Origin: Candidatus Bathyarchaeota archaeon
GTDB taxonomy: Archaea > Thermoproteota > Bathyarchaeia > 40CM-2-53-6
Assembly (NCBI GenBank): GCA_005888745.1
Contig: VBBS01000027.1
Span: 55,045-119,044, forward strand
DNA length: 64,000 nucleotides
Direction of reading: 5' to 3'
The notes beneath the pieces were generated by a model. The model was given only the letters and a program-made list of their open reading frames with translations. It did no database searches and was not told the origin of the DNA. Shown here one piece after another: positions 32,737 through 56,051 of the stretch. Both the position numbers and the translations under genes were made by a program. Every line of letters starts with the position of its first letter. Positions within the stretch are counted from its first letter, which is position 1.

Positions 32737-34422
32737 ACGCCCTCAGTCCAATTCTCTCTGGCGGATCTGGAAGATCTCCTTGGACAGAAGGTTCCCCGAG
32801 ACGAAGACGGGCTCAACCAGCTCCTCGCCTACGTCAAGGGCGACGTGGAATCCCTCGACGAACAGAATGACAGCGTCAGCATCGAGGTCAAAGACAGCAA
32901 CCATCCCGACATCTGGTCGGTAGAGGGAATCGCACGCGCTCTCCGCACTCATCTCGGTCTTACCAAGCCCAAGGCTCCAATCCTTACCGGAAAATCCGGT
33001 CTGAGAGTCACAATAGATCGTAGACTAGGTGCAGTCCGGCCTTTCATCGCAACCTCCATCGTGAGAAACGTCAAGCCAAGCGAGGACGCCCTGAAGAGCT
33101 GGATAAGCCTACAAGAAAAAATGGACCTCACGTACGGTAGAAAGAGAAAACGTGCCTCAATCGGGTTCTACCAAGCCGACCTGATCAAGTCACCTCTTCG
33201 CTACACTGTTGGCAATCCTGAAGACACAGGGTTCGTCCCCCTAGGCTCAACAGAGAAGATGTCTCTCCGAGAGATTGTAGAGAAGCATCCTAAGGGAATT
33301 GAGTATGGAGGAACAATCTCATCTTTCAAAGACTGGCCGCTCCTGGAGAACGGCGACGGCAAGATTCTCTCTCTTCCACCAATCATCAACTCCAACGATC
33401 TGGGCAAGATCGCCTCAGATACGAAGAACATCCTGGTAGAGGTCACAGGGACGAATATCGAAACCGTAGGCAATACGCTGAAGATAGTCGTAGCCGCTCT
33501 CGCCGAAAGAGGAGGCAAGATCTACAGCTGTACTCAAACCTACACGGACAAGTACTCCAAGCCGATAACTACGCCAGACCTGAAATCCAGCATCAAGGAA
33601 TTATCAGTCAACTATGCTAACAGACTTCTTGGATCCACGTTCAAACCAGCAGAGATGATACGATCCTTAGTGAGAGCCGGCCATCCTGCTCGACAGGTGA
33701 GTAAGGACATCTTGCGCGTGGAGAGCCTCTGCTACCGTATCGACATCATGCATCAAGTTGACCTCGTCGAGGATCTCGCGATCGCACTTGACATTAACAG
33801 GCTAGATCCTGAATGGCCGAGAATCTGGACTCTCGGGGGACTAGCGCCTGAAACAGATAGACACGAGACTCTTGCCGAAATCATGATCGGGCTAGGATAC
33901 CAGGAGCTTCTGACCTACAGTCTGACATCCCCTGAAGTCTTCGTTGACAAGATGGGCATAAAACGCGAAAAATACGCGGAGCTGATGAATCCTAAGATGT
34001 CAACCCATACCGCATTGAGAACCTGGCTTCTACCCAGCATTCTCAATTTGCTCAAGGACAATACTCATGTCGATTATCCTCAGAGAGTCTTCGAGATCGG
34101 ACCTTGCGTAGTTGTCAAAGAAAATGGCGAAGGTCAGACGGAAACTCGATACAAGATCGCTGCGGCGACAGTTCACACAGCAGCCGGCTTCACTGAGATT
34201 CGATCTTGCCTCGACACACTCCTCGCAAGCATCGGGGTCAAGTTCGAGGTCGTGCCCACGGTTCAACCGAGCTTTCTCGAGGGACGCACTGGGGAGGTGA
34301 TGTCAGGGCAAGAGCGACTAGGAGTAGTTGGAGAGTTGCACCCGAAGATAATCCGTGCTTGGAGTCTCAGCCTCCCCGTCGCAGCTTTCGAACTAGAGAT
34401 TCCACCAATGGAGGCTGGTTAG
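32737..34422 (+). CDS. pheT: phenylalanine--tRNA ligase beta subunit
   Basis: The PheT-like N-terminus (PSVQFSLADLEDLL...IEVKDSNHPDIW) runs in frame back to ACG 32737, 2 nt after the pheS stop. The ORF track starts at GTG 32845, which removes the conserved N-terminal domain. Confidence 0.85.
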   Translation, partial: TPSVQFSLADLEDLLGQKVPRDEDGLNQLLAYVKGDVESLDEQNDSVSIEVKDSNHPDIWSVEGIARALRTHLGLTKPKAPILTGKSGLRVTIDRRLGAVRPFIATSIVRNVKPSEDALKSWISLQEKMDLTYGRKRKRASIGFYQADLIKSPLRYTVGNPEDTGFVPLGSTEKMSLREIVEKHPKGIEYGGTISSFKDWPLLENGDGKILSLPPIINSNDLGKIASDTKNILVEVTGTNIETVGNTLKIVVAALAERGGKIYSCTQTYTDKYSKPITTPDLKSSIKELSVNYANRLLGSTFKPAEMIRSLVRAGHPARQVSKDILRVESLCYRIDIMHQVDLVEDLAIALDINRLDPEWPRIWTLGGLAPETDRHETLAEIMIGLGYQELLTYSLTSPEVFVDKMGIKREKYAELMNPKMSTHTALRTWLLPSILNLLKDNTHVDYPQRVFEIGPCVVVKENGEGQTETRYKIAAATVHTAAGFTEIRSCLDTLLASIGVKFEVVPTVQPSFLEGRTGEVMSGQERLGVVGELHPKIIRAWSLSLPVAAFELEIPPMEAG

Positions 34423-34423
34423 G

Positions 34424-35578
34424 ATGGTCGAGGAGAAGTTCGTCGTAACCCCTTGGGAGGTCAAGGGGGCGGTCGATTATGACCGACTGATCCGGGACTT
34501 CGGAACCCAACCGATAGCCGGCCTGCTGACCAAGAGGATGGAGGAGATTATGGGTGATGCTGGCTACCTCATCCGCCGGCACATCTTCTTCTCACACCGA
34601 GACCTCAACCTTGTTCTCGACGACTACTCGAAGGGCAAGGGATTATTCCTGTATACTGGTCGTGGACCTAGCGGTCCGATGCACATTGGCCACATACTCA
34701 GCTTCTACTTCACAAAGTGGCTGCAAGACAAATTTCATTCAAACGTCTACATTCAGATAACGGATGACGAAAAATTCCTTGAGGAGAAGCGGAACCTAAC
34801 CTACGAAGATACTCAACGATGGGCTGTAGATAATATTCGTGAAATTGCCGCGGTTGGCTTCGACCCTGATCGGACTTTCATTCTCCAAGACACGGAGTTC
34901 ATCGGACACGCGTATCCTCTAATTCTGAAAATAGCCCGGCGAGTCAATTTCAGCCTCGCCAAGTCAGTTTTCGGGTTTACTGGCGAGACAAACATCGGTT
35001 TCGCTTTCTACCCATCGATCCAGATTCTTCCAACCCTTCTCGAAAAAAGGCGCTGCCTCATCCCGTCGGCCATAGACCAGGACCCATACTGGAGGATACA
35101 ACGCGACATTGCCGAATCCATGGGATACTACAAGGCTGCTGCCGTTCACAGCAAGTTCCTGCCCCCGCTAACAGGGATGAAAGACAAGATGAGCTCATCA
35201 AAACCCGAGACTGCAATCTACCTCAGCGATGATGACAAGACGGTTCGGAACAAGGTATACCGGTACGCTTTTTCTGGTGGACAAGCGACCAAGGAGGAAC
35301 ATCGGAAGAAGGGTGGAGACCCCGATGTTGATGTTCCCTTCCAGTGGCTCTACATGTTCTTTGAGCCCGATGACAAGAGAATAGAGCAGATACGCGTCGA
35401 GTACAAAAGCGGCCGAATGCTTACAGGGGACCTCAAAGACATACTCATTGAAAAGGTGACAACATTTCTCAACCAGCACCGACAACGTAGAGAGAAAGCT
35501 GGCGACCTCATACATTTCTACAAGAAAGACGGGACGCTTGCACAGGAAATGTGGACTCGTGACTTCAGTAAATCGTAG
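34424..35578 (+). CDS. trpS: tryptophan--tRNA ligase
   Basis: Class I motifs (PSGPMHIGH HIGH-like, KMSSS KMSKS-like). Confidence 0.9.
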   Translation: MVEEKFVVTPWEVKGAVDYDRLIRDFGTQPIAGLLTKRMEEIMGDAGYLIRRHIFFSHRDLNLVLDDYSKGKGLFLYTGRGPSGPMHIGHILSFYFTKWLQDKFHSNVYIQITDDEKFLEEKRNLTYEDTQRWAVDNIREIAAVGFDPDRTFILQDTEFIGHAYPLILKIARRVNFSLAKSVFGFTGETNIGFAFYPSIQILPTLLEKRRCLIPSAIDQDPYWRIQRDIAESMGYYKAAAVHSKFLPPLTGMKDKMSSSKPETAIYLSDDDKTVRNKVYRYAFSGGQATKEEHRKKGGDPDVDVPFQWLYMFFEPDDKRIEQIRVEYKSGRMLTGDLKDILIEKVTTFLNQHRQRREKAGDLIHFYKKDGTLAQEMWTRDFSKS

Positions 35579-35583
35579 TTCAT

Positions 35584-36543
35584 ATGTCAGAGGAGTATCC
35601 TTTCAAGCATAGCAAACTTAGGAGTATGGTGGATTCAGTGTACGATTCGGAAGCCCTGAACTCTTTCCGGAAATCAGGCCAGATCATCGCAAAGCTCCGG
35701 AAGGAAATAGCCTCCATCGTCAAGCCGGGAAAACCCGCGCTGAAGATATGCGTGGAAATCGAAAGCCGGATTCGGGAGCTCGGAGGCAAGCCGGCCTTCC
35801 CCGTCAATATCGGGATCAATGAGATTGCCGCACACTACACGTCGCCGCCCGGCGACACTCTAACCATTCCCTCCGGGTCAATGGTGAAAGTTGACTTCGG
35901 GGTCCACGTGAACGGTTACGTGACGGACACGGCTGTGACCGTTTTCTATGATCCGAAATTCGAACCGATGGTGAAGGCTGCTGACGATGCATTGCAGAAC
36001 GCAATCAAAACATTCAGAGGAGGAGTCAAACTATCAGATATCGGACGAGTCATCCAGACAACGATAGGAAAGTATGGGTTCCGACCCATTAGCAATCTCA
36101 CAGGTCACAGCATCGAAAGGTACAGCATTCACGCAGGTAAATCCGTGCCAAACGTTCCAGTGCTTGCCGCAGGGAAGGCAAACGAAGGCGAAGTGTTCGC
36201 CATCGAACCTTTCGTAACCCTGCCCGACGCCGCAGGCTCCGTCACAAACATGCTGCCGGCCCAGATCTACCGCTACATAAAATCCAAAGGCGTTAAAAAC
36301 GACGAGTCCAAGAAAGTCCTCGACGACATATACGCAAGATTCTCAACCCTGCCCTTCGCACCCCGCTGGCTGGAAGACAAGTTCCCTAGAGAGACCGCTA
36401 AGCGCGCGATGCTAGACCTGACACACAACAAGTGTGTAGGCGGATATCCTGTCTTAGTGGAGGAGACTCGGAGACCCGTTGCCCAGTCAGAACATACGGT
36501 TCTGGTCGGACGGGATGACTGTACCGTACTTACAACAGACTGA
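35584..36543 (+). CDS. map: methionine aminopeptidase type 2
   Basis: Pita-bread fold metal ligands (VDFGVHVNGYVTD, FAIEPF, HSIERYSIHAGK). Confidence 0.9.
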   Translation: MSEEYPFKHSKLRSMVDSVYDSEALNSFRKSGQIIAKLRKEIASIVKPGKPALKICVEIESRIRELGGKPAFPVNIGINEIAAHYTSPPGDTLTIPSGSMVKVDFGVHVNGYVTDTAVTVFYDPKFEPMVKAADDALQNAIKTFRGGVKLSDIGRVIQTTIGKYGFRPISNLTGHSIERYSIHAGKSVPNVPVLAAGKANEGEVFAIEPFVTLPDAAGSVTNMLPAQIYRYIKSKGVKNDESKKVLDDIYARFSTLPFAPRWLEDKFPRETAKRAMLDLTHNKCVGGYPVLVEETRRPVAQSEHTVLVGRDDCTVLTTD

Positions 36544-36548
36544 CAGGG

Positions 36549-36935
36549 CTACTTTTTCGGCGACCCTTCGGTGTAGATCCCGTTGATACTGAGGTCTCCA
36601 GTAGTACACTGGGTGCACTTGCCGAGCGTCTTGAAAACAAAATCTCCCAAAGCGAAGTTCTTGATCTGTTTGAAGCTGCACTGGCCGCACTTGACTACGG
36701 AAAGCACTTTTGGCGGTGTGAATGCGCCTATCCGGACTCCTCTCCTCATCCTCGTGAAAGACAGGACAACGAACGTGAAGGCGAGAACCGCGATTGTGAA
36801 ATAGAGAATCTGAATTGTCGGATCCAGATTACCGTTCAGAGCGAGACCGATAGTGTAGAGGCCGACTACCGCCATGACGGCGGCTACTATGGTTATGACT
36901 ATTGATGAGCCGCTACGTGGCTTAGGCTGCGACAC
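36549..36935 (-). CDS. membrane protein with C-terminal zinc ribbon
   Basis: Three TM helices, then CGQC...CTQC. Confidence 0.5.
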   Translation of the reverse strand: MSQPKPRSGSSIVITIVAAVMAVVGLYTIGLALNGNLDPTIQILYFTIAVLAFTFVVLSFTRMRRGVRIGAFTPPKVLSVVKCGQCSFKQIKNFALGDFVFKTLGKCTQCTTGDLSINGIYTEGSPKK

Positions 36936-36948
36936 CCCCGATATCCTT

Positions 36949-38061
36949 CTATTGACCGATACCGATGGTGTTGCCGATACCGGCGACTATTATAGTATCG
37001 CCCGGCTTGCTCCGTTCCAGAATGAGGCTCTTGATCCTCTCGATAACTTTCTCTCCAGCCTCCATTATCTCCTTCTTCATCGGCGTAATCGCTTCCTGAA
37101 TACTCTCCTTTACGATAACAGCGTAGACCGGAATCTTGTGGACTGTTGCTTCCTGTTCGATCTTGAACCGTTCCGTGCCGACGCCGCCGATAGCCGCCCC
37201 AATTCCTTCGCTGATCTCGCCTGAAGTCTCGCCCTCGAACTTCACCGCCGCATCCACCATGACCACCATCGAAACCTTACCAACATTTTCTTCGATGATC
37301 GTCTTGATGGCGTCCCCCGGTTTCCCAACGTTTCCGCCAGGACCCTCCGCCTTCAAAGCGATCACTCTACGGTCCTCCATCATCGTCTCCGCAACAACAA
37401 CGTCCTTCTCGACCTTCCGCTTCTCCTTGTCCTTCATCAGCCTCGAAGCAACAAGTGGTCCGATTCCATCCCCGATAGGCTGGCCCTCAGCGAACGCCTT
37501 CGCGGCGCCCAAGTAGGCCTCAGCCTCTTGGATAATCAGTGGAAGCAACGCTTGAAGCTGGATAATGATGAAGATACTGTTAGTCTTCTTCCCCATCAAG
37601 TAGAAGTGTCGGATAATCCTGTAGATCGTGTTAAGAGCCCAAGAGGCCTCCACCAAGTTCTCCAGGTTCATAACCTGAGAAGAGTCCGCGCCGGGCGCGA
37701 TCCTTCGAACATCCTCCTTGAACTTCGCATCTCGAACATCCAGCAAATGATCGATCTTGCCGACGATTCCAGCTGGGTCCATATCGACCGGCGAGATTAG
37801 GAATTGCTCCATCAACACATTGATTTGTGGACCGGGATCAGTTGAAGGTTTTCCGATTTCCTTGACGGTCTTGAGCGTTAGATCCTTCGCTGAGTTTCGG
37901 AACATGTCCAGTCTCCGCAATCCCTTGTCGATCTCCCAAAGGAACTGGCGCATCTGCAGCTTCTGACCAAACCCGAAGAACAGTGCGATGAAGAGAACAG
38001 TAAAGAGTAATTGACTGATGGTGCCCAGATTTCCCAGGATCGCATCGAAAGGTGTAGCCAA
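36949..38061 (-). CDS. membrane-associated hypothetical protein (DUF1512-like)
   Basis: N-terminal TM helix. Conserved-looking but without a recognisable catalytic motif. Confidence 0.5.
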   Translation of the reverse strand: MATPFDAILGNLGTISQLLFTVLFIALFFGFGQKLQMRQFLWEIDKGLRRLDMFRNSAKDLTLKTVKEIGKPSTDPGPQINVLMEQFLISPVDMDPAGIVGKIDHLLDVRDAKFKEDVRRIAPGADSSQVMNLENLVEASWALNTIYRIIRHFYLMGKKTNSIFIIIQLQALLPLIIQEAEAYLGAAKAFAEGQPIGDGIGPLVASRLMKDKEKRKVEKDVVVAETMMEDRRVIALKAEGPGGNVGKPGDAIKTIIEENVGKVSMVVMVDAAVKFEGETSGEISEGIGAAIGGVGTERFKIEQEATVHKIPVYAVIVKESIQEAITPMKKEIMEAGEKVIERIKSLILERSKPGDTIIVAGIGNTIGIGQ

Positions 38062-38236
38062 TTAGCCAGGGCTCCGAAATCTAACCGATTATTCCCGTCT
38101 GAATGTTATAAACGTTGATCCCTAAGACTAGCCCAAAGTAATCCGAAAGATATCCGACAGGAAAACCGTTACTTCTTGTTGAAACAGAAAATGAGGTTGG
38201 CAGCGGTCTAAGCTTCGCGTGGGCTTTCGCACCACA

Positions 38237-38503
38237 CTACCACATAGATCGCCTGGGAGATTCACTTCCGTGCTTCCGGTACGAGTCAAGCATCGCCCTA
38301 AGTGTTCCTGCCTTGCCAACATCACTGAATCCGATCCTATCACAGAATCGGAGCAAGTTGTCCCTGCCAAGGATGGCTAACTTCCAACTTGTAATCGTGC
38401 TCCTTCGAACGCCAGCCTTGGTGTCCAAGTACAACTTGGAGTCGATGCCCATTTCGGTGAGCATCCCGCCGATGTTTTCTAGGAGCATACTATTTGTGTC
38501 CAT
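38237..38503 (-). pseudogene. LAGLIDADG homing-endonuclease C-terminal remnant
   Basis: SWKLAILGRDNLLRFCDRIGFSDVGKAGTLRAML resembles the region downstream of the second LAGLIDADG motif of DOD endonucleases. No motif of its own. Confidence 0.35.
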
Positions 38504-38539
38504 GATGCTTTTCTCGTTCTTTCGGAATGGGTACGGGTC

Positions 38540-40552: not shown

Positions 40553-40699
40553 TGGAATCCCCTAGCTGAACCCGAACACCTTGCTCCAAGAGAGATTTGG
40601 AGAATCCACAACTAAAGAGACATGTAACTCACGCTTCCACAATCGCGGATGCGACAATCGGAGCAAAGCCGAAAACTAGATTAATCTAGACACGGCACA

Positions 40700-41002
40700 A
40701 CGCCCGAACAAGGTGCAACCTGTCTGATATTCGCCTTCTTAATCTTCTACCGGGTTAGACCGCTGTCTGAGGCAGATAAGAAGAAAGCCACAGCCGACTG
40801 GGCACGGTTCAAGAAAACACTGTCCAAAGAACTCGCGATAGTAGCGGAGTACGCGCACATCTGGGGAACAACCTACAACGGCATGATCCTCGTCGAGTCA
40901 CGTGACCTCTCCACATTCCACGACTTCTGGCACCGTTTCCGCGAAACTACAAGATGGTACGTGCCAGAGACAAGAACATACATCGCCCAGAAAGAAGAAT
41001 AG
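40700..41002 (+). CDS. small alpha/beta protein (DUF3303-like), candidate ACG start
   Basis: Clean 100-codon frame (..LIFYRVRPLSEADKKKATADWARFKK...FHDFWHRFRETTRWYVPETRTYIAQKEE). It has no in-frame ATG, GTG or TTG before a downstream Met. There is an in-frame ACG at 40700. Confidence 0.35.
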   Translation, partial: TPEQGATCLIFAFLIFYRVRPLSEADKKKATADWARFKKTLSKELAIVAEYAHIWGTTYNGMILVESRDLSTFHDFWHRFRETTRWYVPETRTYIAQKEE

Positions 41003-41263
41003 GCCAGAACTATCCCGAGTATTTCGACTAGGCTCTATACCAAGAATTTCCGACACCCGCATCTCAGTGGGGCACTCAACTCTCCGTCGGATTAGGAGAG
41101 ATTGTGCCACTGTTCCGGAAGGATTCTTAGCTTCGGCACCTTTCTCTCTGTCTTTTGACTGGAAACGCGCTCACTTGCCAGGGGTCTGGCCAGTGAAAAC
41201 GGTCAATAGGAAAATTCGCCCCCTAAGCGACCTTCTAAGCCCGTAGCCCTAGGATGTTACGAA

Positions 41264-41956
41264 TTGCTCACCGAGTCGCAGTCAGAGATGCTTGGGATAC
41301 TGTTCGGAGATGGGTCGATGTCTGAGAATCACAACTCCGTTCAGATCGTCATAACCGGTCACAAATTCGATGACGTAGAGTACCTAATTGGCCGCGTAGG
41401 TCCGATGTTCGCGGAACTCTTTGAAATGCCCCTCAAGGTACATCTAGTGAAAGATGAAAATACGATGATCCTCTACGCTTACTCCAAACGAATTGCCCTG
41501 ACCCTTCACGAATGGGGAATGCCTTTTGGCCGAAAAAAACTGGCCTGGCTCACACCGCACGTCGCATTGGATGAAGTATCTTTCGTCAGAGGCTTATTCG
41601 ACACAGATGGCTGTGTCTATCGCAAGTATGGCCCTTATTTGCAAATCCAGTTTAAGTTCGCTTCCCTTTCGCTCCTTGAGTACGCGAGGGAGTGTCTGGT
41701 AAGACTCGGCCTGAATCCCACATCGATCAGGTGCGACGATACGAAGTTCAGGTTCTATCTCAGCAGACAAGCCGAGGTAGACCATTTCTTTAGGGTCGTA
41801 GAACCCAAGAACCCAAAGCATCTTAATCGTTTCCAAAATGCTTCTCGGAATCGGTCCTACCGCCCATACACACATCGTCCTGAAGCACTCAGAAGAATTG
41901 GAAACCAACCAAGCCTTATAGGACCAATTCTGTGGAAAACACACTCGGTGGGGTAA
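41264..41956 (+). CDS. free-standing double-motif LAGLIDADG homing endonuclease
   Basis: Motif 1 LGILFGDGSM and motif 2 VRGLFDTDGCVY. TTG start. Confidence 0.8.
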   Translation: MLTESQSEMLGILFGDGSMSENHNSVQIVITGHKFDDVEYLIGRVGPMFAELFEMPLKVHLVKDENTMILYAYSKRIALTLHEWGMPFGRKKLAWLTPHVALDEVSFVRGLFDTDGCVYRKYGPYLQIQFKFASLSLLEYARECLVRLGLNPTSIRCDDTKFRFYLSRQAEVDHFFRVVEPKNPKHLNRFQNASRNRSYRPYTHRPEALRRIGNQPSLIGPILWKTHSVG

Positions 41957-41982
41957 CTAAGGAAACCTTTCGACATAGGGCT

Positions 41983-43081: not shown

Positions 43082-43170
43082 GTCTCGATCGAGAACCCCG
43101 TATACCTCAACATAGGTTTTGTGCCGGGAAAGCTAAAGTCTCTCTAGATCACGCTGTGAACTGACACATC

Positions 43171-43665
43171 TTGAGTAGGCCTTCAAAGCAGGTAAGCACT
43201 TCCAAGACCACTCTCTCCAGTCAGATGATGCCTGTGGACGCCAATCCGATGGGAAACGTGCACGGGGGCACAATTCTCAAACTTGTCGATGTCGCCGCCG
43301 GAGTCACGGCCCTGCGACATGCGAGAACTATTGTGGTCACCGCAAGCATCGACCGTATGGACTTTTACCATCCAGTCTATGTCGGCAACCTTCTCAACTT
43401 CAAGGCCTCAGTCAACTACGCTGGAACAACCTCGATGGAAGTCGGAGTAAGGATAGAAGCTGAGGACCTGAAGACTGGTAGAATAACACACACCGGCTCA
43501 TCCTACCTCACCTATGTTGCTATAGATGAGAACGGACAACCAGTCGAGATTCCCGACGTCATCCCGGAGACACTTGACGAAAAACGACGCTGGAGAGAAG
43601 GAAAAAAGCGAAGGGCCGAACGCCTCAAGATCCTACAAGATCGAAGGAGCAAGGGCAAGGCCTAG
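43171..43665 (+). CDS. acyl-CoA thioesterase (hotdog fold, YciA/PaaI-like)
   Basis: MPVDANPMGNVHGGTILKLVD hotdog signature. TTG start, with an internal ATG at 43225 also possible. Confidence 0.8.
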   Translation: MSRPSKQVSTSKTTLSSQMMPVDANPMGNVHGGTILKLVDVAAGVTALRHARTIVVTASIDRMDFYHPVYVGNLLNFKASVNYAGTTSMEVGVRIEAEDLKTGRITHTGSSYLTYVAIDENGQPVEIPDVIPETLDEKRRWREGKKRRAERLKILQDRRSKGKA

Positions 43666-43677
43666 GGTCGACAAAGA

Positions 43678-44562
43678 ACGAAAGTCGCAATTGTAGGGTT
43701 CGGCATGATGGGCCGGCAGATAGCCCAAGTATTCGCCCAAAATGGCCACGAGGTCGAGGCCACGGATGAGGATCAGCAAGCACTGAAGGCGGGGCTCAAC
43801 GAAATAGCAGACGGGCCCTACGGATTGCACGCGGCTGTTTCAAAAGGAAAACTGGCTGCAGAGCAAGCTCACAGGACTCTAGCAGCCATCAAGACAAGAC
43901 CCGAGCTAGCGGATGTTTGCAAGAACTCGACTCTTGTGATCGAGGCAGCCTTCGAGGAGCTGCAACTCAAACAGAATCTGTTTCACAGAATTGAATCTGC
44001 TGCGCCACCAACTGCGATCATAGCATCAAACACTTCAACCTTGAGCCTGGACAAGATCACCCAAAGAATCTCAAGGAAGGACAGAACGATTGGAATGCAC
44101 TTCTTTAATCCAGCCCAGCTCACAAAACTCGTCGAGATCGTCCGAGGAACGTCGACATCACCTGAAACACTAGAGAAAGCGTCCCAAATCGTCCGGGAGA
44201 TCGGTAAGACCCCTATCCTCGCCCAAGATGAGCCTGGTTTCATCGCCAACCGTCTCGGACTCACCCTCTACATGGAGGCTTCAAGACTGCTAGAGGATCG
44301 TGTCGCAAGTCTCTCTGACATCGACACGTGCATGAGACTCGGATACAACCATCCAATGGGACCCTTCGAACTAGCCGACTTCGTCGGACTTGACACCAGA
44401 CTTCGGAATCTAGAATCACTCTACAAGTCAACGAATGAAAGTAAATGGATACCACCTCAGATTCTAAGAGAGATGGTCCAACAAGGATACCTCGGCGACC
44501 CTGCTAGAAAGAAGACGAGCAAGGGCGGATACTACGAGTATCTCCGGATAAAGCGAGGATAA
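43678..44562 (+). CDS. hbd: 3-hydroxyacyl-CoA dehydrogenase
   Basis: Rossmann motif VAIVGFGMMG plus C-terminal HAD domain. The ORF-track start ATG 43705 cuts through GxGxxG. The frame is open back to the stop at 43663, and the only start-like codon there is ACG 43678. Confidence 0.85.
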   Translation, partial: TKVAIVGFGMMGRQIAQVFAQNGHEVEATDEDQQALKAGLNEIADGPYGLHAAVSKGKLAAEQAHRTLAAIKTRPELADVCKNSTLVIEAAFEELQLKQNLFHRIESAAPPTAIIASNTSTLSLDKITQRISRKDRTIGMHFFNPAQLTKLVEIVRGTSTSPETLEKASQIVREIGKTPILAQDEPGFIANRLGLTLYMEASRLLEDRVASLSDIDTCMRLGYNHPMGPFELADFVGLDTRLRNLESLYKSTNESKWIPPQILREMVQQGYLGDPARKKTSKGGYYEYLRIKRG

Positions 44563-45793: not shown

Positions 45794-45796
45794 TTC

Positions 45797-46591: not shown

Positions 46592-46658
46592 GACACGGTG
46601 TGTTTTCCAGGTTTCACGTTTAAGTAACAAGCTCCTCAATCGCGAGAGTTGAATAACC

Positions 46659-47660: not shown

Positions 47661-47667
47661 GAAGTGG

Positions 47668-47985
47668 TTGAAGATCACGAAGATCATAGTCCTGTTCGGA
47701 CAACCGAAAGACCCCGAACTATTCGATGAGCAATACTGGAAAGACCATGTTCCAATAGCGAAGGCGATGCCAGGTTTGAAGAAATACACAGTTCACAAGA
47801 TCGTTGGGGCACCACGAGGAGAACCGGCATACTACCAGGTTGTCGAACTGGAATTCGAGAATATGGACAGCCTGAAGAAAGCATTGGAAAGCCCGGCCGG
47901 ACGCGAATCAGGCCGGCACGGCGTAAAGATTGCTACTGGTGGCATAACTTTCCTTTACGCGGAATCAAGAGAAGCGATGCCGTAG
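47668..47985 (+). CDS. EthD/Dabb-family small alpha-beta barrel protein
   Basis: KIIVLFGQPKDPELFDEQYWKDHVPIA N-terminal pattern of the EthD family. TTG start. Confidence 0.55.
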   Translation: MKITKIIVLFGQPKDPELFDEQYWKDHVPIAKAMPGLKKYTVHKIVGAPRGEPAYYQVVELEFENMDSLKKALESPAGRESGRHGVKIATGGITFLYAESREAMP

Positions 47986-48077
47986 AACAACAACAGTCTA
48001 GCCCGGTTCCATCTGACATATTCCTCGGAAAACGTTCTTCTAATCAGACCCGTCAGTTCTAGGACAGGAGCGGGGAA

Positions 48078-49235
48078 GTCTTAGGCCGCATCGGAATCGT
48101 TGGAGTTGGACATTCAAAGTTCGGAAAAAGGAGCGACGCCTCCCTCCGAGAGCTAGCATTCGAAGCGTACAGTTCCGCCCTAGATGACGCCGACATCGAC
48201 TCTTCAAAAATAGACGGTTCAATAGTTTGCTCCGCCACTCACTACGACAAGCAACGATCGCCTGCAGGTGTTGTTGCGGAATATCTCGGACTCAATCCCC
48301 AACCAACATTCAACGTTGAGGCAGCCTGCGCCTCCAGCGCTGTTGGCCTTCGGACCGCGTGGGCGCTTGTCTCATCAAAACTTCATGATGTGGTGGCCGT
48401 TGTGGGGGTGCAGAAGATGACCGAACTCTCCTCGGAGGAGATCCAGGAGCTCATGGGCAGAGCAGGGGACGTCATGTGGGAGTCTCCCTTCGGAACAACA
48501 ATGCCCGCATACTACGCCTCCTATGCTAACGCCCACATGGCCAAGTACGGAACTACAGAGGAACAAATGGCGCTCGTGTCGGTGAAGAACCGAAAATACG
48601 GATCCAAGAATCCTAACGCCATGTTTCAAAAACCCATCCAATTGGAAGAGGTCCTAAAATCGCGAATGGTATCTTATCCTCTAAAACTATACGATTGCTG
48701 CGCCAATGCTGACGGGGCGGCATGTCTGCTCATTACTAGTGCCGAAAAAGCAAAGAAAATTTCTGATAGACCCGTATGGATCTCCGGGCTTGGCCTGGCT
48801 TCGAGTCCCATGTCGCTTGCTGGAAGAAAAGGTCCATTGACGAGTTTCGATGCCACAAGAAATGCGGCGAGAACGGCATACGAAATGGCCAATATCAAAC
48901 CACACGACGTACATGTGGCGGAGGTTCATGACTCTTTCTCGGTAACAGAAATCATCAATTATGAAGACCTCGGATTCGCACGACCTGGAAGGGGTGCTAA
49001 GCTTCTGGAAAACCAAGGCACGGAGCTCGGCGGGAGAATCCCCGTCAACATCGACGGAGGCTTGATTTCCAAAGGCCATCCAGTCGGAGCCACAGGCGCG
49101 TCCCAGATCTTCGCATTGGTCAAACAACTACGGGGGGAAGCGGGTAGCGTTCAGGTCGACGGCGCTAAGATTGGTCTCGCACAGAACATAGGGGGAATAG
49201 GAATGTACTGCTCCGTTACGATCTTGCGCTCATGA
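48078..49235 (+). CDS. thiolase (SCP-x-type acetyl-CoA C-acyltransferase)
   Basis: Thiolase N-terminal domain (GRIGIVGVGHSKFG...AACASSAVGL active Cys) is in frame with the called ORF 48390..49235. The frame opens at 48063, and there is no ATG, GTG or TTG before 48390. Start position uncertain. Confidence 0.75.
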   Translation, partial: VLGRIGIVGVGHSKFGKRSDASLRELAFEAYSSALDDADIDSSKIDGSIVCSATHYDKQRSPAGVVAEYLGLNPQPTFNVEAACASSAVGLRTAWALVSSKLHDVVAVVGVQKMTELSSEEIQELMGRAGDVMWESPFGTTMPAYYASYANAHMAKYGTTEEQMALVSVKNRKYGSKNPNAMFQKPIQLEEVLKSRMVSYPLKLYDCCANADGAACLLITSAEKAKKISDRPVWISGLGLASSPMSLAGRKGPLTSFDATRNAARTAYEMANIKPHDVHVAEVHDSFSVTEIINYEDLGFARPGRGAKLLENQGTELGGRIPVNIDGGLISKGHPVGATGASQIFALVKQLRGEAGSVQVDGAKIGLAQNIGGIGMYCSVTILRS

Positions 49236-49281
49236 GTACATTCTCCAAGCTCTATGACGAAAAGCGAGGGCGAATCTAGGA

Positions 49282-50208
49282 TTGCAGGTGGACATTCAAG
49301 AGTTGACCCCCATTCAAAGCTTCGGCAGAAGAATTCGAGCCTATGATAAAGCCACACGCCTCGCAAAGGAAGGTCGCCCTGTCACTGAAATCTCGAAAGA
49401 GACGGGAACGCCTGACGCTACCATCAGGGGATGGCTCGTAAACGGTCGAAAACCTTGGACCCGCTGCGAACTCTTCAAACCAACGTACTCTGATCAATTA
49501 ACATATGTTATCGGTGTTTACATGGGAGACGGCTCGATTTCCCGATGGAGAAATCGTTTTTTACTGCGATTAGATGTCAAAGACAAAGAATTCGCCGATA
49601 AGTTTTCTTCAACATGCGCACATGTTCTGGGTAGGAAACCATATTCTGTGAGGCATGTCAGGGATAGGGACACATACGAGACTATCATTTCAAACGCGTC
49701 TTTCTGCAAGTTCCTCAACCGAGGCCTCACCCACCTGGATCGGTATGTACGGGAGCATCCCTCTGGCTTTGTTAGAGGTTTAGCTGATAGCGATGAGTGC
49801 CCCACTGTGACAACAACAAAAAAGCGGGGCAAACCCTGGTTCTTCGTCCAAGTTGTAGTAGCAACATCCAAGAGCATACGCTTACTGAGCTATACTCGGA
49901 CGATCCTGAGGGAATGCCTCGGACTCAAAGCGACGCTAGTGTACAAAGGCAAGCCAAGACCCAGTGTGTTCAAGAACAAGTTGCTCCGTTCAAGAAAGAG
50001 GGTCTTTGACCTTAGGATATCGCGCTTTGGTGACGTGAAACGATTCTCCCGGGTTGTTGGTTTCGAATTGGCTCGGAAACAAGAGAAGCTTGCCGCTGCT
50101 ATCTTCGTCCGTGAAGGATTTGGTTCTGGTCAGGATGCGGTGAAAGAGTGGACCCGTCGCTGGGAGCATGGCACCACTGAGTGGATTCTCAAGAAAGGAG
50201 TGGACTAG
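49282..50208 (+). CDS. free-standing LAGLIDADG homing endonuclease with N-terminal HTH
   Basis: Motif 1 YVIGVYMGDGSI and motif 2 FVRGLADSDECP. TTG start. Lies between the thiolase and DUF35 genes. Confidence 0.8.
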   Translation: MQVDIQELTPIQSFGRRIRAYDKATRLAKEGRPVTEISKETGTPDATIRGWLVNGRKPWTRCELFKPTYSDQLTYVIGVYMGDGSISRWRNRFLLRLDVKDKEFADKFSSTCAHVLGRKPYSVRHVRDRDTYETIISNASFCKFLNRGLTHLDRYVREHPSGFVRGLADSDECPTVTTTKKRGKPWFFVQVVVATSKSIRLLSYTRTILRECLGLKATLVYKGKPRPSVFKNKLLRSRKRVFDLRISRFGDVKRFSRVVGFELARKQEKLAAAIFVREGFGSGQDAVKEWTRRWEHGTTEWILKKGVD

Positions 50209-50211
50209 GCA

Positions 50212-50620
50212 ATTGGGTTTTGAAAAGTTCGGGAGATTTGGTTATGTCTCCCAGACCAAGATCAACCCCTTGTTATCCTATCTGGAAAAGGGGCAGATTG
50301 CCGCGACCAAGTGCAAGAAGTGCGGGAGAACGTACTTTCCACCAAGAGCCGAGTGCCTGGACTGCCGCCACAGTACGATAGAATGGGTTGTAGTGGACGG
50401 GAGGAGCAAACTGATCACATTCACCCAGGTTTTCTTCGCACCACCCGCCTTTCAGCACGAAACCCCGTACATGCTAGGACTTGCGGAACTCACGAATGGG
50501 CTTCGCGTATTCGCGCCTGTCAGTCCTGCAGTGGAAAAGGAGCAACTCAAACCGGGCGTCGAGCTGACCTTGAAGGTTGCAAAAGGCTCACGTGACAACT
50601 TGTACTACTGGCTCGAATGA
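50212..50620 (+). CDS. DUF35 OB-fold/zinc-ribbon protein (thiolase partner)
   Basis: CKKCGRTYFPPRAECLDC ribbon plus OB-fold. The ORF track starts at ATG 50168 inside the endonuclease gene. TTG 50212 with an upstream AAAGGAG gives the typical ~135-aa DUF35 length. Confidence 0.7.
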
Positions 50621-50645
50621 AGAACATGTGAATCGTCTTTCGGAG

Positions 50646-51509
50646 CTATTCGAGCCGCGGTAATCGGAGATCATCGCCCGCTGTTCGATAGCCGAGCTTG
50701 AGGGCCAATGGTGGGCGTCTCTTGTGCTCTGACTTCAACCAGCGTTCTCGAACTCTCCTGACTAGTGCCAGCTTCAAGCTCGTTTCATCCACTATCTCTT
50801 CTGGTGTCATCCATCTTTCAAGGCCCCAAAGAATCCTGTCCAGCTTCTCATAGCTGAGGCCTAATTCTTTCTCCGCTGTCTGACCTGGCCATAGCTCAGG
50901 GCTAGAAGCTTTCACGCGAATCCTCTCCGGTATGTTCAAGTGTCTGGCCAGGTTCCGGACTGATGTCTTGTAGAGATCTGCGAGGGGGAGTATGTCGCAG
51001 GCTCCATCGCCAAACTTTGTGAAGTAGCCTAGCATAATCTCACTCTTATCGCCAGTTCCCACGACGAGACCGTGCTCCGTGTTAGCATAATAGTAGAGGA
51101 CTATTGCGCGAAGCCGCGCCTTGACGTTTCCCCAAGGAATTCCCTTCGCGCTCTTTGCGTCTAGAGCGTTTCGAGAGGTTTTGACAATGGGCGTAATGTC
51201 AATTAGCTTGAAGCCTATTCTATGCTTCAACGCCACAAGTCTCGCATCTTCCACGGCCTGATCATTCCTCGTCTCATTCTCCGGCAGAGTTATCCCAAGA
51301 ACCCGCCTGCCCCCGACCGCGCGGGCGCATAGCGCCGCGGCAACACTAGAATCTAGACCACCAGACATGCCAAGGACGAGGCAGCGTGCACCGGCTTCTT
51401 CCAGGTGAGTCGTAAGAAATCGTTCAAGCCGACTTACTGTTTCCTCTGGGTCCCGAATGGCGAAAGGATCCTCGCCGTATCTAGAGGACATGGTGTCCTC
51501 GACTTTCAA
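50646..51509 (-). CDS. nadE: NH3-dependent NAD+ synthetase
   Basis: PP-loop SGGLDSS motif. Confidence 0.9.
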   Translation of the reverse strand: MKVEDTMSSRYGEDPFAIRDPEETVSRLERFLTTHLEEAGARCLVLGMSGGLDSSVAAALCARAVGGRRVLGITLPENETRNDQAVEDARLVALKHRIGFKLIDITPIVKTSRNALDAKSAKGIPWGNVKARLRAIVLYYYANTEHGLVVGTGDKSEIMLGYFTKFGDGACDILPLADLYKTSVRNLARHLNIPERIRVKASSPELWPGQTAEKELGLSYEKLDRILWGLERWMTPEEIVDETSLKLALVRRVRERWLKSEHKRRPPLALKLGYRTAGDDLRLPRLE

Positions 51510-51537
51510 GCCAGTGTAATAAGCCGAGAGTCCTTGT

Positions 51538-52797
51538 CTAGCTGATGATGCGTGAGCCGCGATCTTCTGAGGCGAGGTTCTTGAACAATGGCAGCATCCT
51601 GTCCATCGTCACCCAGCGCTCACTCGCGAACGAAGCCTCGCTCGCCGCTTCCTGAACAATATTCTTCAAGTCCCGAGGCGTCACAACGTACTGCTCGCGA
51701 ACTGTAACCCCTCGTTCAGGGATCGATGCTTCGTACAATTGTTTCCTAGACCTAATCGTCCTCCAGATATCCGCGAAGGCCTCGTCAGTCAATCCTCCAC
51801 GATAGTTCGAGACTGACGGATCCAGCTCTACCTTGGAGCAGTAAAAGTCCAATAATCTCTTGACTTCATCCATCGACCTTGGAGGCGGAACATAGATGAT
51901 CCGCTTGATCCGATCCAGAAGCGCTTGATCTATGACACTGGGATAGTTGGTGGCGAATATCACGGACACGTTTCTGTTAACGTGGAAGCCTTCTCCGAGC
52001 TCTGTAAGAATCTGGTTAAGCATTCCCTGAACATCCCTTCCCGCGTCAGTCGTCGCTTCCATCCTCGCGCGTCCAATAGCATCAGCCTCATCTATGAAGA
52101 GAACTGTAGGAGCAGATTCTCGCGCGAGCTTGAAGACCTCCTTGACGTTCTTCGCAGACTCGCCCAGCCATTTTGACACTATCTCGTAGCTCTCTATTTT
52201 GAGGAAGCTTGTCTCCTGACCCCTCTGCCCGATCGTCCCCGCAACAGCCTTCGCCATGTACGTCTTCCCAGTCCCGGGTGGACCGAAGAGAAGTATCGAC
52301 CCGGCTTCTTCAAGCATCCGTGGGTCTCGGATGATCTGCTCGCGTCGAGCTCGGACCTGAGGATCAAGTATCCACTCGACCGCCTGCCGCAGGCTGTGCA
52401 GCTCTTTTTCGAGGCCAACGACGTCTTCATAGAAGACCTTGGGCGACTTTTCCACCTGATATTCTAAGAGTGAACGCTCGCGTAAACGGTCAATCACGTC
52501 GACAATGACTCCCTTCGTCGGAGAGAGAACCGCGTCCACGTCGGTGGACACTTTTTCCCTTATCTCGGGAGGGATGCTAACCTGAAACGCTTGGCCGCCT
52601 GATAGCCGAACCAGCGCCATATCCCCCTTGACATCTTCTATGGTCCCGATGGGACGCATACCTTGCTTGAGCTCTTCCATCAGGTTGTGGTATCTGCGGA
52701 GCTCGGTCTGGAGATACTCTATCTGTCTCTCCTTTCTTGTCAGTTCTCTTTCGAGGTCAAGTGCAGGAGGATATTCTGGCGAGTTCTGCTCGGCCAT
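51538..52797 (-). CDS. pan: PAN-like AAA+ ATPase (proteasome-activating nucleotidase family)
   Basis: N-terminal coiled coil, OB segment (IGTIEDVKGDMALVRLSGGQAFQV), Walker A GPPGTGKT, Walker B LFIDEAD. The C-terminus ends ...RIIS, with no HbYX. Confidence 0.8.
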   Translation of the reverse strand: MAEQNSPEYPPALDLERELTRKERQIEYLQTELRRYHNLMEELKQGMRPIGTIEDVKGDMALVRLSGGQAFQVSIPPEIREKVSTDVDAVLSPTKGVIVDVIDRLRERSLLEYQVEKSPKVFYEDVVGLEKELHSLRQAVEWILDPQVRARREQIIRDPRMLEEAGSILLFGPPGTGKTYMAKAVAGTIGQRGQETSFLKIESYEIVSKWLGESAKNVKEVFKLARESAPTVLFIDEADAIGRARMEATTDAGRDVQGMLNQILTELGEGFHVNRNVSVIFATNYPSVIDQALLDRIKRIIYVPPPRSMDEVKRLLDFYCSKVELDPSVSNYRGGLTDEAFADIWRTIRSRKQLYEASIPERGVTVREQYVVTPRDLKNIVQEAASEASFASERWVTMDRMLPLFKNLASEDRGSRIIS

Positions 52798-52990
52798 GCA
52801 GCTTCTGAACTATGATACCCGTTCGGGGAATAAATAGATATGGGCTTGCCCGAGCTGCCAACTTTGTGGTCTTTCACGTAGAGACCGAGTTCGAGACTCA
52901 ACAAAGTCCCGTTTTCAAGAACTCGAGAATGGCGAACAGTTCGAGAAAAAAGTGATTGATCTATTGCAATGAATCGAGAACGCGGTCCGG

Positions 52991-53758
52991 CTAGGTGCCA
53001 ACCATCGTGCCCATGCTCGGTCTCTTTCGCAAGAACCCGAACCGCGGAAGCTGAAGCTGAATCCCTATCCCGTTTATGATATCGAACCGTACGAGCCGCG
53101 GTATAATCTGGCGACGATCCATTTTCCTGACGAGCAAGTATCGACGTAGCACCTGGTGCTCTTCTACCATTCGCAGTTCTACCACGCCGTCCACGAGACT
53201 CTCGACCTTGTGAAACAGTTCCGGCTGGACACTGCCCGTTGAGAGGGTGGCTATCATTTTTCCTCCCACCTTCTTGACTTTCGCGGCAATACTCTGGATG
53301 AAACTGACGGCATGTTTCGGCTCAGCTTCGCTAAAGATCGGCATCAACGAGTCAAGTATGATGGTCACCTGGTGATTGCCCATCTTTTCCATTACGGAGG
53401 TCAAATGAATGCTGACATTGGTCAGGTCGAATGGTTGAGGAACCACTCCCTCGGTAACTCCAGCGGTTGCAGAGTAACAATCAATGATGCCAAGTTTGTT
53501 GAGCAACTGGTACTTCCTCGGGTCCCAGCCAAACTGGCTCATTCTCTCGAGAATGTTCGAAGGAAACGTGTCGTATGTGACTATGATACAGGGTCTCGAT
53601 CTCTGAAGCTCCTCGTAGAGGATCTGTTGTGCAAGAGTCGTCTTTCCACTACCTGGGTCGCCTGTGATCAGCACAGACGAGGAATCGGGCAGACTGCCCC
53701 CTATGAGCGCGTAAAATCCCTTGAAGGGCGCGGACCTAGTCTCCAGTTGTGAGTTCAC
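52991..53758 (-). CDS. KaiC-like / RecA-superfamily ATPase (single domain)
   Basis: Walker A ITGDPGSGKTT and KaiC-like layout. Confidence 0.8.
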   Translation of the reverse strand: MNSQLETRSAPFKGFYALIGGSLPDSSSVLITGDPGSGKTTLAQQILYEELQRSRPCIIVTYDTFPSNILERMSQFGWDPRKYQLLNKLGIIDCYSATAGVTEGVVPQPFDLTNVSIHLTSVMEKMGNHQVTIILDSLMPIFSEAEPKHAVSFIQSIAAKVKKVGGKMIATLSTGSVQPELFHKVESLVDGVVELRMVEEHQVLRRYLLVRKMDRRQIIPRLVRFDIINGIGIQLQLPRFGFLRKRPSMGTMVGT

Positions 53759-54336
53759 CTAAGGCAAGCTAAACGTCGAAAGCTACTATTTTCCAACAGG
53801 ACCGTTCAGGCGTATGAATGGGAATTGTAACCTATCCATCCATCAAGGAGTGACCGAGCTCGTGAGGCAGCGAGAAAGCGCCCCCGCAGAACGTCGAATA
53901 AGTCAATAATGCTGAAGTGTGTCGCAAGAGGGCACTGCGAAAGGCTCGGACTGGGAACTTCGACTAGTCTAGCTGGCCTTCAAAATGGCTCGTTTCGACC
54001 CTTAGACGGAAATGAAGCTCCAGCAGATTCATCAACGTCGCAATCTCGTCGAGGTCTTCGGCATTGTCCATCCGCCTGAGGGGTTTCCCCTTTCAAGCCA
54101 CCGACGCATACGATTTCCAATCAGCTGCCGCTAGCACAGGGATTATGGTTCTGCTTAGTTTTGGTTGGATAGTTGTTGTTGGCTTGTTGACTTAGCTTGC
54201 CTCCATCGTCATCAGGGAGAGTGACCTAACCCCTCTCAATCCGACGAAGAGTTAACAGTGCCTCATTTTCTCATGCATTGTTCTCTACCAACACGAAATT
54301 ACGTGAACGGAAGACAGAAAAAAGGAGATGATCGAA

Positions 54337-55353
54337 CTAAATCTTTGGAGGCGGTAGCGGCCTTCGCACCTTGATCGCCAAAAGAATTAGGAAAAGCGCC
54401 ACACCGAAGATCGTCAATAATACGATTGCTGAGACGACAGGAGCAGAAGAAGTACCACCCGCATTCAGTGTTACGGTGCTGACCGGAGCGACTGAAGCAT
54501 CTTCCGACCATGTTCCCTGGTCTTGACCCTGGTAGAGAACGTGCGCTGAATAGGGTCCGATTGGAATATCGCCGAGTTGAACTGTTCCCTGACTGTCGGT
54601 CGTGAAAGTTCTGCTTGTTGCGTTGGCGAAGGTGATTGTTACCGATGCGCCCTGAATCGGACTGTTCAGCTTGTCGACAACTTTGACGGACGCCGGGTAC
54701 GCGCTCACCCCGACAATGGCAGAGGCTGAACCCAAGGCGAGGTCAAGGGGTACTGGGGCAGGCAGAGCTCCTTGGTAGCCTTCCCAGGTCGCCGAAGTAA
54801 CCGTCCAAGAAGTCGCGGCCAGCCACTGGCCAGAATAGGACGAGGTTGTAACACTCGAACCTGCACTCGACAATACGACAGACGTTGGACTCGGAACGAG
54901 TGATTGCCCTGCAGCATCTTTGAAGGTCAACGTATACTGGAACTGCTTATCGAACTTGGCGGTGAAGGGTCCTCCATCCAATGATCCTGTGTAATTGTAG
55001 AGCATGATCGGAGTCTGCATCATCAGAGTGGGGGTCCACTGCAAACTGGAACGGACCCATTCGTTCCATACATAACGTGCTCCTGAGGACGCTGACAAGG
55101 TTGTGTTCAGAACGGTAAGAGTATGTCGACTATTGTTTGCGAATGAGAACGTGTGTGGTAGAGGATAAACTAAGCCAGTATTGTTGTCGAGCTCAACGTA
55201 CACTGTTCCATCCGCACCAGGCACGGTTGTGTCTGCTTTGAGAAGACAGCTTGTGATGCACCCGCTGGTCGCATGAACATCTGCCAGGAAGAGCGGGACA
55301 ACCATGATTGAAAGTGCCAGAATCAGCAATGAGGCACGAGCCGTCTTCCTCAA
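54337..55353 (-). CDS. cell-surface protein with signal peptide and C-terminal TM anchor
   Basis: N-terminal hydrophobic signal segment, Thr/Ser-rich beta-rich body, C-terminal TM followed by a basic tail. Confidence 0.55.
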   Translation of the reverse strand: MRKTARASLLILALSIMVVPLFLADVHATSGCITSCLLKADTTVPGADGTVYVELDNNTGLVYPLPHTFSFANNSRHTLTVLNTTLSASSGARYVWNEWVRSSLQWTPTLMMQTPIMLYNYTGSLDGGPFTAKFDKQFQYTLTFKDAAGQSLVPSPTSVVLSSAGSSVTTSSYSGQWLAATSWTVTSATWEGYQGALPAPVPLDLALGSASAIVGVSAYPASVKVVDKLNSPIQGASVTITFANATSRTFTTDSQGTVQLGDIPIGPYSAHVLYQGQDQGTWSEDASVAPVSTVTLNAGGTSSAPVVSAIVLLTIFGVALFLILLAIKVRRPLPPPKI

Positions 55354-55643
55354 CAGAGATGCTCACTAACGGTTGAGGAAATTGGAACTCTATGCCTTAG
55401 GACATCTTTAACCACAGTCAATCGGTGTAGGGAACAACCAGGCTTTTGAATTGAACTCATTGGGAAGCCGGTCTAAACGGTGCTCGCACGAGAAATGCAT
55501 AGTGCAATCCACATAGTGGAGCCGTTCTTGAGCCTCAACTCTTACATTGAGCATCCTTCTCCCGGATTCCCGGTCCTACGGATAGTGATGTTTCTCCGGA
55601 CATTCGAAGACTTCTAGCTCCGACCGGAATAGAAAGTTACATA

Positions 55644-56051
55644 TTGTGGCAGGCGTATGACAAGTCAGCTTTGGAACTTGGAGATCTCGAGGCAGCTGTC
55701 CTCGGGACAGTTGTTCGGCTTGGCAACGCTTCTGCCCGCCAAGTCGCTCAGGACCTGCATGCTACCCGTGGACTCGCATACACTACAATCAGTACAACGC
55801 TGGATCGTCTTTACAGGAAGGGGATCTTGGCCCGTGATGAGGCTGTTGGCAGAGGAGGGTCCAGATACGTGTATCGCCTTCACTCCGAGGACAAGGTCAA
55901 GGGTCGAGTCGTGAAAGGATTCGTTGACAGGTTGCTCACAGCCTTTGGACCCAGCATTATCTCGACGTTGCATGACTACATGGATGAGATTCCAAAGGAG
56001 GACCTGAAGAAGCTGGAAGAAAGAGTTCGTAGGGAGTCCGGGCAACGATAA
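55644..56051 (+). CDS. BlaI/MecI/CopY-family winged-helix repressor
   Basis: ARQVAQDL...LAYTTISTTLDRLYRKGILAR matches the penicillinase-repressor family pattern. TTG start. Confidence 0.7.
   Translation: MWQAYDKSALELGDLEAAVLGTVVRLGNASARQVAQDLHATRGLAYTTISTTLDRLYRKGILARDEAVGRGGSRYVYRLHSEDKVKGRVVKGFVDRLLTAFGPSIISTLHDYMDEIPKEDLKKLEERVRRESGQR

Follow-up and report, generated by a model that had tools for sequence, protein, structure and literature searches.

In a 64,000-nucleotide (nt) stretch of a Candidatus Bathyarchaeota archaeon genome (assembly GCA_005888745.1, contig VBBS01000027.1, positions 55,045 to 119,044; hereafter the window), we observed genes, including the essential PheRS beta gene pheT, that carry ACG or CTG at the codon where their homologs start (Table 1). 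From comparisons of DNA sequence, we consider it on balance probable that ACG and CUG are true near-cognate initiation codons in this soil lineage of Bathyarchaeota, positioned by Shine-Dalgarno (SD) motifs and often translationally coupled to the upstream gene. Relatives were collected in scans of genomes and metagenomes. A species-level scan with one genome per species gave 22 loci with pheT, and a metagenome scan anchored on the thiolase gene gave 80 further loci spanning window positions 38-59 kb. Individual loci are given as L numbers.

An earlier note on this DNA had proposed ACG starts in four genes (pheT, hbd, an M48 peptidase gene and a small open reading frame (ORF)), with a possible fifth in a DUF385-like gene. 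The ACG codons are present at all five positions (32737, 43678, 56045, 40700 and 506). The starts of pheT and hbd coincide exactly with the start columns of their homologs, and that of the M48 gene is probable; the small ORF starts at CTG 40724, eight codons past ACG 40700, and the fifth case is not needed. The note had also raised the possibility that orthologous genes all start downstream of the ACG, and we observed that orthologs start exactly at that codon. The core observation of the note was largely borne out, and two ACG cases absent from it, scpB and SHMT, were added. The framing of the note was too narrow and in part misplaced; the lineage also has CTG starts, one TTA column, and TTG starts about as often as ATG.

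Table 1. Start codons and associated motifs located in the window (CDS, coding sequence; positions in window coordinates).
Feature	Position	Strand	Remarks
pheT, ACG at Met position	32737..32739	+	CDS 32737-34422; placed by profile, structure and relatives
AGGT, SD-like motif 8 nt 5' of pheT ACG	32725..32728	+	Outgroups have GGAGGT or AGGTGA here
hbd (3-hydroxyacyl-CoA dehydrogenase), ACG start	43678..43680	+	CDS 43678-44562; ortholog start column
scpB, ACG start	7575..7577	-	CDS 7577..6984; second ACG directly before, 7580-7578
SHMT, conserved start-column ACG	24274..24276	-	Window and L003, L004, L005, L007
M48/M56 peptidase, probable ACG start	56045..56047	+	CDS 56045-56956; alternatives ATA 56048, CTG 56054
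Small conserved ORF, CTG at start column	40724..40726	+	CDS 40724-41002; placed by relatives and conserved AAGGTG
Thiolase, TTA at start column	48081..48083	+	CDS 48081-49235; AGGAG 48066-48070, 10 nt upstream
EthD-like gene, start region	47668..47676	+	Ancestral column 47674 is ATC in the window
DUF385/F420H2-quinone-reductase-like gene, ordinary TTG start	521..523	+	Gene 521-922

A conserved ACG at the start of pheT

The ACG of pheT begins 1 nt past the pheS stop codon (TAG, 32733-32735). Position 2 of the NCBIfam pheT_arch profile aligns with the residue directly after this ACG. Residue 1 of the N-terminal PheT fragment of Pyrococcus horikoshii, for which a structure has been solved (2cxi), aligns to the ACG position itself (MPKFDVSKSDLERLIG vs xPSVQFSLADLEDLLG). 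The reading frame has a stop 7 codons 5' of the ACG and contains no ATG, GTG or TTG before GTG 32845, which lies 36 codons inside the conserved PheT domain. Read from the ACG, the predicted N-terminus is (M)PSVQFSLADLEDLLGQK.

We observed ACG at the PheT Met column in eight GTDB species representatives (L003-L010; 58-89% PheT identity), with many synonymous differences in the neighbouring codons. The same codon was present in two more deep-branching contigs (L126 and L127; ~58% identity), 7 nt after GGTGG or GGTGA. ATG or GTG occupied the column in L021 (70% identity) and in all more distant Bathyarchaeia. Among the ~85 closest protein-database clusters (roughly at least 70% identity), none had a canonical start at the Met column, and gene callers had picked assorted downstream GTG or ATG codons. 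The gap between the pheS stop and the ACG was 1 nt in L003-L010 and 2 nt in L126 and L127, and the pheS stop itself varied (TAG, TGA or TAA). The frame relation between the two genes is thus not conserved, and a PheS-PheT fusion by +1 frameshift was rejected.

ACG at the start columns of further genes

The ACG of hbd begins 12 nt past the stop of a 4HBT thioesterase gene and lies 9 nt 3' of AGGGT (43664-43668). It is followed by KVAIVGFGMMG, and the first ATG of the frame (43705) falls within the GxGxxG motif. Hbd profiles and solved homologs begin 0-3 residues from the ACG, and orthologs have ATG at the identical codon (MKVAIIGFG). Counted over unique sequences, the start column held ACG in 12 relatives and the window, ATG in 18, GTG in one and TTG in one. 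The exchange occurs between close relatives: L004 and L006 read ATG-AAG-GTC..., and the window and L007 read ACG-AAG-GTC... The predicted Hbd N-terminus is (M)KVAIVGFGMMGR.

The start of scpB overlaps the 3' end of scpA by 23 nt. No canonical start lies ahead of the conserved N-terminus, and ACG 7577 aligns exactly with the Met (ATG) of ~115 homologs beginning MEAQVSTNT, so that the N-terminus is predicted as (M)ETQVSTNTAQQK. The tandem ACGACG was identical in six independent assemblies. A clear SD motif was not found for scpB. For SHMT, L004, L005 and L007 have a stop 4-5 codons upstream and AGGGT 9 nt upstream of the ACG, which makes the ACG the only plausible start in these three relatives. 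The window SHMT has gained an ATG (24288-24286) four codons 5' of the ACG, at the place where relatives have the SD motif.

The M48 ACG overlaps the stop codon of a gene for a BlaI-like repressor, in the sequence ACGATAA. It lies 8 nt 3' of GGGAG (56032-56036) and is followed by a hydrophobic N-terminal segment. It was present in 15/15 relatives with an alignable N-terminus, and the downstream GTG 56156 was not conserved. Substitutions 3' of the ACG were mostly synonymous, which indicates that coding begins at or near this codon. In the distant homolog L124, TTG occupies the column of the window's CTG 56054, three codons 3' of the ACG. Another distant homolog, L125, has CTA at that column and keeps the ACG 8 nt after an SD motif. 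As the end of the BlaI-like gene (CAA CGA TAA) runs through the M48 ACG, we discounted its third-base conservation as evidence. These alignments make ACG 56045 the probable start of the M48 gene.

Translation might instead begin at the next canonical codon downstream or at an in-frame start upstream, or the genes might be read as fusions by frameshift or readthrough. Public gene calls do use downstream starts (PheT, 525 amino acids (aa); Hbd, 285 aa; ScpB, 161 aa; thiolase, 272 aa), and the TTG of the one distant M48 homolog would fit such a start. Those shorter forms would, however, cost PheT 36 residues of its B1 domain and Hbd its strand beta-1 and half of its GxGxxG motif, and ScpB would lack its conserved N-terminus. 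Between the ACG and the downstream starts, codons evolve mostly synonymously. In-frame stops 2-7 codons 5' of the ACG starts exclude longer forms. The frame relation of hbd to the upstream gene changes among relatives, so a 4HBT-Hbd fusion by TAG readthrough is not conserved and was rejected. We regard a start elsewhere as highly improbable: ACG is the homolog-defined start, with no canonical alternative, in pheT, hbd and scpB, as is CTG 40724 in the small ORF. Short gene calls were rejected as a proxy for non-canonical starts. MTHFR (6044-6949, + strand) provides the counterexample, as its public call is 211 aa, yet it begins at a normal GTG (6044) that overlaps the upstream gene as GTGA.

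CTG and TTA at start columns

The ACG at 40700-40702 opens a frame of 100 codons in which the first ATG is codon 66. We rejected it as the start of the small ORF, since the frame is lost in distant relatives and interrupted by an in-frame stop in L082; this ACG belongs to the 5' leader. CTG occupied the start column of the small ORF in 19 relatives, GTG in 8-9 and ATG in two. AAGGTG (40710-40715) was conserved at a fixed distance, 8 nt 5' of CTG 40724. The apparently conserved 'PEQG' upstream of this ORF is the SD motif read as protein. Further upstream, a perfect palindrome, CTAGATTAATCTAG, is located at window positions 40676-40689 and was conserved in ~20 relatives; it may serve as a promoter (TATA box) or an operator.

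The thiolase start column provided a wider range of codons. Unique relatives had ATG (47), TTG (6), CTG (4), ACG (2) and GTG (1). TTA was confined to the window strain, where three independent assemblies contain it; the closest relatives have TTG, and the AGGAG motif is retained. The first canonical start is codon 109 of the stop-to-stop frame (GTG 48390, 103 codons past the TTA), and no canonical or single-mismatch start lies at an SD-compatible distance in the thiolase gene. A protein look-up did not find the 281-aa GTG form of thiolase on record.

Some relatives have CTG in place of the start of UppS (L105-L107), DUF7121 (L112) and thiolase (five loci), and ACG in place of that of thiolase (L093 and L103) and a CinA-like gene (L112). 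Across relatives, the start columns of thiolase, UppS, DUF7121, MoCF and the small ORF hold CTG, ACG, TTG, GTG and ATG. As judged from these alignments, this interchange fits a graded set of near-cognate codons.

We also assessed start codon usage over the whole window. With starts curated by ortholog columns where possible, and the left third of the window less well checked, the 62 genes had ATG (24), TTG (23), GTG (9), ACG (4), CTG (1) and TTA (1). TTG was fixed at several starts, namely those of crotonase (45020; 34/34 unique relatives), RpiB (43081; 14/14) and PolB (24780; 4/4). The DUF385-like gene also uses TTG: starting at TTG 521 gives a 133-aa protein of the same length as its L110 ortholog, which has TTG at the same column and a stop 5 codons upstream. 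In the EthD-like gene, relatives have TTG, ATG, CTG or GTG at column 47674, and TTG 47668, two codons upstream, probably took over as the start in the window.

Conservation and context of the ACG and CTG codons

ACG accounts for ~1% of internal codons, and four exact matches to Met columns are therefore not due to chance. The start column was uniformly ACG in 9 PheT, 13 Hbd and 5 SHMT sequences. Within the ACG-bearing sequences, a single codon was kept in few of the conserved four-fold-degenerate columns (PheT, 3/83; Hbd, 6/81; SHMT, 31/128), and none of the 26 all-Thr columns of the three proteins was uniformly ACG. Thr codons of an ordinary N-terminal extension would drift at the third base. 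The start is always ACG, which argues that the codon is read as a start.

At a distance of 4-13 nt, SD k-mers preceded 74% of ACG and 96% of CTG start columns, compared to 24% and 21% of the internal ACG and CTG codons of the window, in a comparison drawn from few sequence families and hence with a small effective sample. Position relative to the upstream gene also set the ACG starts apart. All four in the window lay -23 to +12 nt from an upstream same-strand stop, compared to 14/56 canonical starts within 30 nt (hypergeometric p ~0.005). The individual distances were +1 nt for pheT, -7 nt for M48, +12 nt for hbd and -23 nt for scpB; in the relatives of SHMT the distance was +22 nt.

These distances raise the alternative of pure termination-reinitiation, in which the restart involves little or no codon-anticodon check and the ACG is tolerated as what remains of a lost ATG. 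In caliciviruses, reinitiation is known to accept restart codons other than AUG. Every ACG start in the window adjoins an upstream stop, and PheS/PheT and ScpA/ScpB are subunit pairs of complexes, as in coupled archaeal gene pairs (PMC10666635). Two observations argue against it. The whole ACG, including its third-base G, is strictly conserved in pheT, hbd and SHMT, where no reading frame overlaps the site, which indicates that the codon is read. CTG starts also occur without an adjacent upstream gene, as in the small ORF, which is behind a divergent promoter region, and at the thiolase column, which is 95 nt from the previous gene. We therefore consider pure reinitiation quite unlikely.

Sequencing, assembly or binning artefacts, or decaying pseudogenes in a single genome, could in principle produce odd start codons. 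The window does contain one broken gene, encoding aldehyde dehydrogenase (ALDH), with a 25-nt deletion, and the TTA of thiolase occurs in the window strain alone. Near-identical strains (99.8-100% DNA identity) were, however, assembled independently from at least five other samples, and these assemblies, from several sequencing centres, contain the same ACG codons. The ACGs are kept across many species in intact ORFs under purifying selection, and pheT is essential. An artefact is extremely unlikely overall and, by these sequence comparisons, refuted for pheT, hbd, scpB and SHMT. The earlier note had judged random errors at so many starts improbable and had kept systematic error as one of three explanations beside editing and non-canonical initiation. 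Error, whether systematic or random, was ruled out by the recurrence of the same ACGs in independent assemblies and in other species-level lineages from different studies. Non-canonical initiation is the best supported of the three.

A possible mechanism of initiation

Near-cognate initiation would proceed as follows. An SD-like motif 8-9 nt upstream would place ACG or CUG in the ribosomal P site, where the ordinary initiator Met-tRNA (anticodon CAU) may pair with it despite one mismatch. The mismatch to AUG falls at position 2 in ACG and at position 1 in CTG; the thiolase TTA has two mismatches. The lineage would tolerate such codons through relaxed start-codon discrimination, as suggested by TTG being about as common as ATG. 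Where genes are coupled, translation of the upstream gene would deliver ribosomes that probably make up for the weakness of the ACG codon. Archaea are known to use termination-reinitiation, with an enrichment for subunits of heteromeric complexes (PMC6728339, PMC10666635). Its efficiency in Haloferax volcanii falls steeply beyond ~10-20 nt (PMC10666635); the pheT and M48 starts are within ~10 nt of the upstream stop, but coupling is probably not the whole story for hbd, SHMT and scpB.

Several points weigh against near-cognate initiation. The distances of hbd (+12), SHMT (+22, in relatives) and scpB (-23) are outside the range of reinitiation in H. volcanii (PMC10666635). ACG initiates at ~0.5% of the AUG level in yeast (PMC4705826), and in E. 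coli the seventh-best start codon reached only 0.3% (Hecht 2017, as cited in PMC10666635). As ACG is a very poor start in the systems tested, unmodified machinery is difficult to square with an essential PheRS beta that depends on it. Conserved starts that differ from AUG at the third position (AUU, AUC and AUA) were not seen here. A C-to-U change would make both recurrent codons, ACG and CTG, canonical, which fits editing as well, and the thiolase TTA falls outside a near-cognate explanation because of its two mismatches. The support for initiation at ACG and CTG is drawn entirely from DNA, and the sequences counted are phylogenetic kin, so that the counts overstate independence.

The initiation machinery itself could have changed so that ACG and CUG are cognate-like, through a second initiator tRNA with a CGU anticodon, a modified anticodon, or altered aIF1 or aIF2. 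Consistent with this, ~10% of curated window starts are non-canonical, TTG equals ATG in frequency, ACG evolves as a near-equivalent of ATG, and an essential gene retains it across deep divergence. The confinement of ACG to coupled operon positions suggests instead a weak codon that still needs help. No initiator tRNA was found among 60 related loci scanned, which gave only a few elongator-type calls, or in the window, which has no tRNA genes; an initiation-factor gene was not seen either. We consider altered machinery unlikely.

mRNA editing would change ACG to AUG and CUG to UUG before translation. In plant organelles, C-to-U RNA editing creates AUG from ACG starts, for example in ndhD and psbL. 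The genomic C is located exactly where relatives have T, a single C-to-U change turns both ACG and CTG into canonical starts, ACG and ATG swap freely among close relatives, as edited sites do, and an invariant third base is also expected under editing. Against this, the sites share no sequence context besides the SD motif, the thiolase TTA cannot be mended by C-to-U, and no deaminase gene was seen in the 64-kb window or in the flanks of related loci. Editing also does not predict the long retention of the pheT ACG across lineages of 58% identity, as a C-to-T reversion would be neutral or better. To our knowledge, the only such editing described in archaea is that of tRNA C8 in Methanopyrus, and none is described for mRNA; start-codon creation of this kind would so far be limited to plant organelles and a few eukaryotic systems. 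Taken together, we judge editing very unlikely and continue to favour near-cognate initiation.

Comparison with known systems

Reviews give AUG, GUG and UUG as the archaeal start codons (PMC4705826, PMC7531240). Ribosome profiling of H. volcanii noted putative near-cognate alternative sites and set them aside (PMC7261190). Conserved primary starts at ACG or CUG did not come up in our full-text literature searches on archaea and Bathyarchaeota, and seem undescribed for archaea. The present case shares SD-led and coupled operon initiation and heavy GUG/UUG use with established archaeal usage. It differs in its conserved ACG and CUG primary starts and in a TTG frequency that matches ATG.

Eukaryotic near-cognate initiation uses Met-tRNAi and is policed by eIF1 (PMC4705826). 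It involves the same codons (CUG and ACG, besides GUG and UUG), each with a single mismatch to CAU, and archaeal aIF1, aIF1A and aIF2 are homologs of eukaryotic initiation factors (PMC7531240). Eukaryotic near-cognate starts are found by scanning and yield alternative isoforms or upstream ORFs, whereas the starts proposed here are SD-placed in operons, are the sole starts of housekeeping genes and are conserved across species. Archaeal and bacterial termination-reinitiation (PMC6728339, PMC10666635) resembles the present case where only a few nt separate start and upstream stop, as at pheT and M48, and in gene pairs that encode complex subunits (PheS/PheT and ScpA/ScpB). Known coupling cases have ATG or GTG in ATGA or TGATG overlaps; here the codon is ACG, and some of the distances (+12, +22 and -23) fall outside the efficient range in H. 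volcanii.

The plant-organelle sites resemble ours in that the genome has ACG where Met is conserved and relatives have ATG. They differ in that the TTA found here is beyond such repair; editing machinery is not known from archaea and was not seen in the window or flanks. Bacterial infC has an AUU start and is autoregulated through IF3. It shares with the present case a weak non-canonical start conserved in a translation-related gene; the domain of life, the codon and the fidelity factor (IF3 vs aIF1) differ, and the regulatory loop has been seen for infC.

Other features of the window

The window has a G+C content of 52%. Exact-protein look-ups matched it to a Bathyarchaeota genome assembled from a soil metagenome (ENA ERZ28573795, scaffold_26). 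ARAGORN and Rfam searches over the window did not find tRNA or other RNA genes. AT skew was strongly negative (-0.24 to -0.29) at positions 8001-16000, which coincides with a long minus-strand block of SMC, ScpA, UppS and PNP genes. The ALDH gene (57026-58431, + strand) has its deletion just after 57100 compared to all relatives (L026, L032 and L039). The deletion causes a frameshift, and the gene is a pseudogene or reflects an assembly fault in the window strain. This strain may therefore have undergone some gene decay, to which the thiolase TTA could be related.

The window and the near-identical strain L120 differ by an indel of ~105 nt at 54229-54334. Three ORFs have weak matches to the homing-endonuclease-like family LAGLIDADG_3 (38237-38503, - strand; 41264-41956, + strand; 49303-50208, + strand). 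These ORFs are interspersed among conserved genes, and their presence and length vary across relatives.

Implications

Our data suggest that, in many species of a widespread soil lineage, ACG or CUG is retained as the only start available to an essential PheRS beta gene and to several housekeeping genes. Gene callers truncate or miss such genes: the calls for PheT and ScpB are each 36 aa too short and that for thiolase 112 aa, and the small ORF has no call. The same truncations occur in hundreds of database entries, and the N-termini of soil Bathyarchaeota would thus be systematically wrong in proteomes and metabolic reconstructions. If the codons are edited, this would be the first mRNA editing reported in Archaea. 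If they are read directly, as we favour, the lineage, with initiation factors homologous to those of eukaryotes, would be a natural experiment in relaxed start stringency and would bear on the evolution of AUG fidelity.

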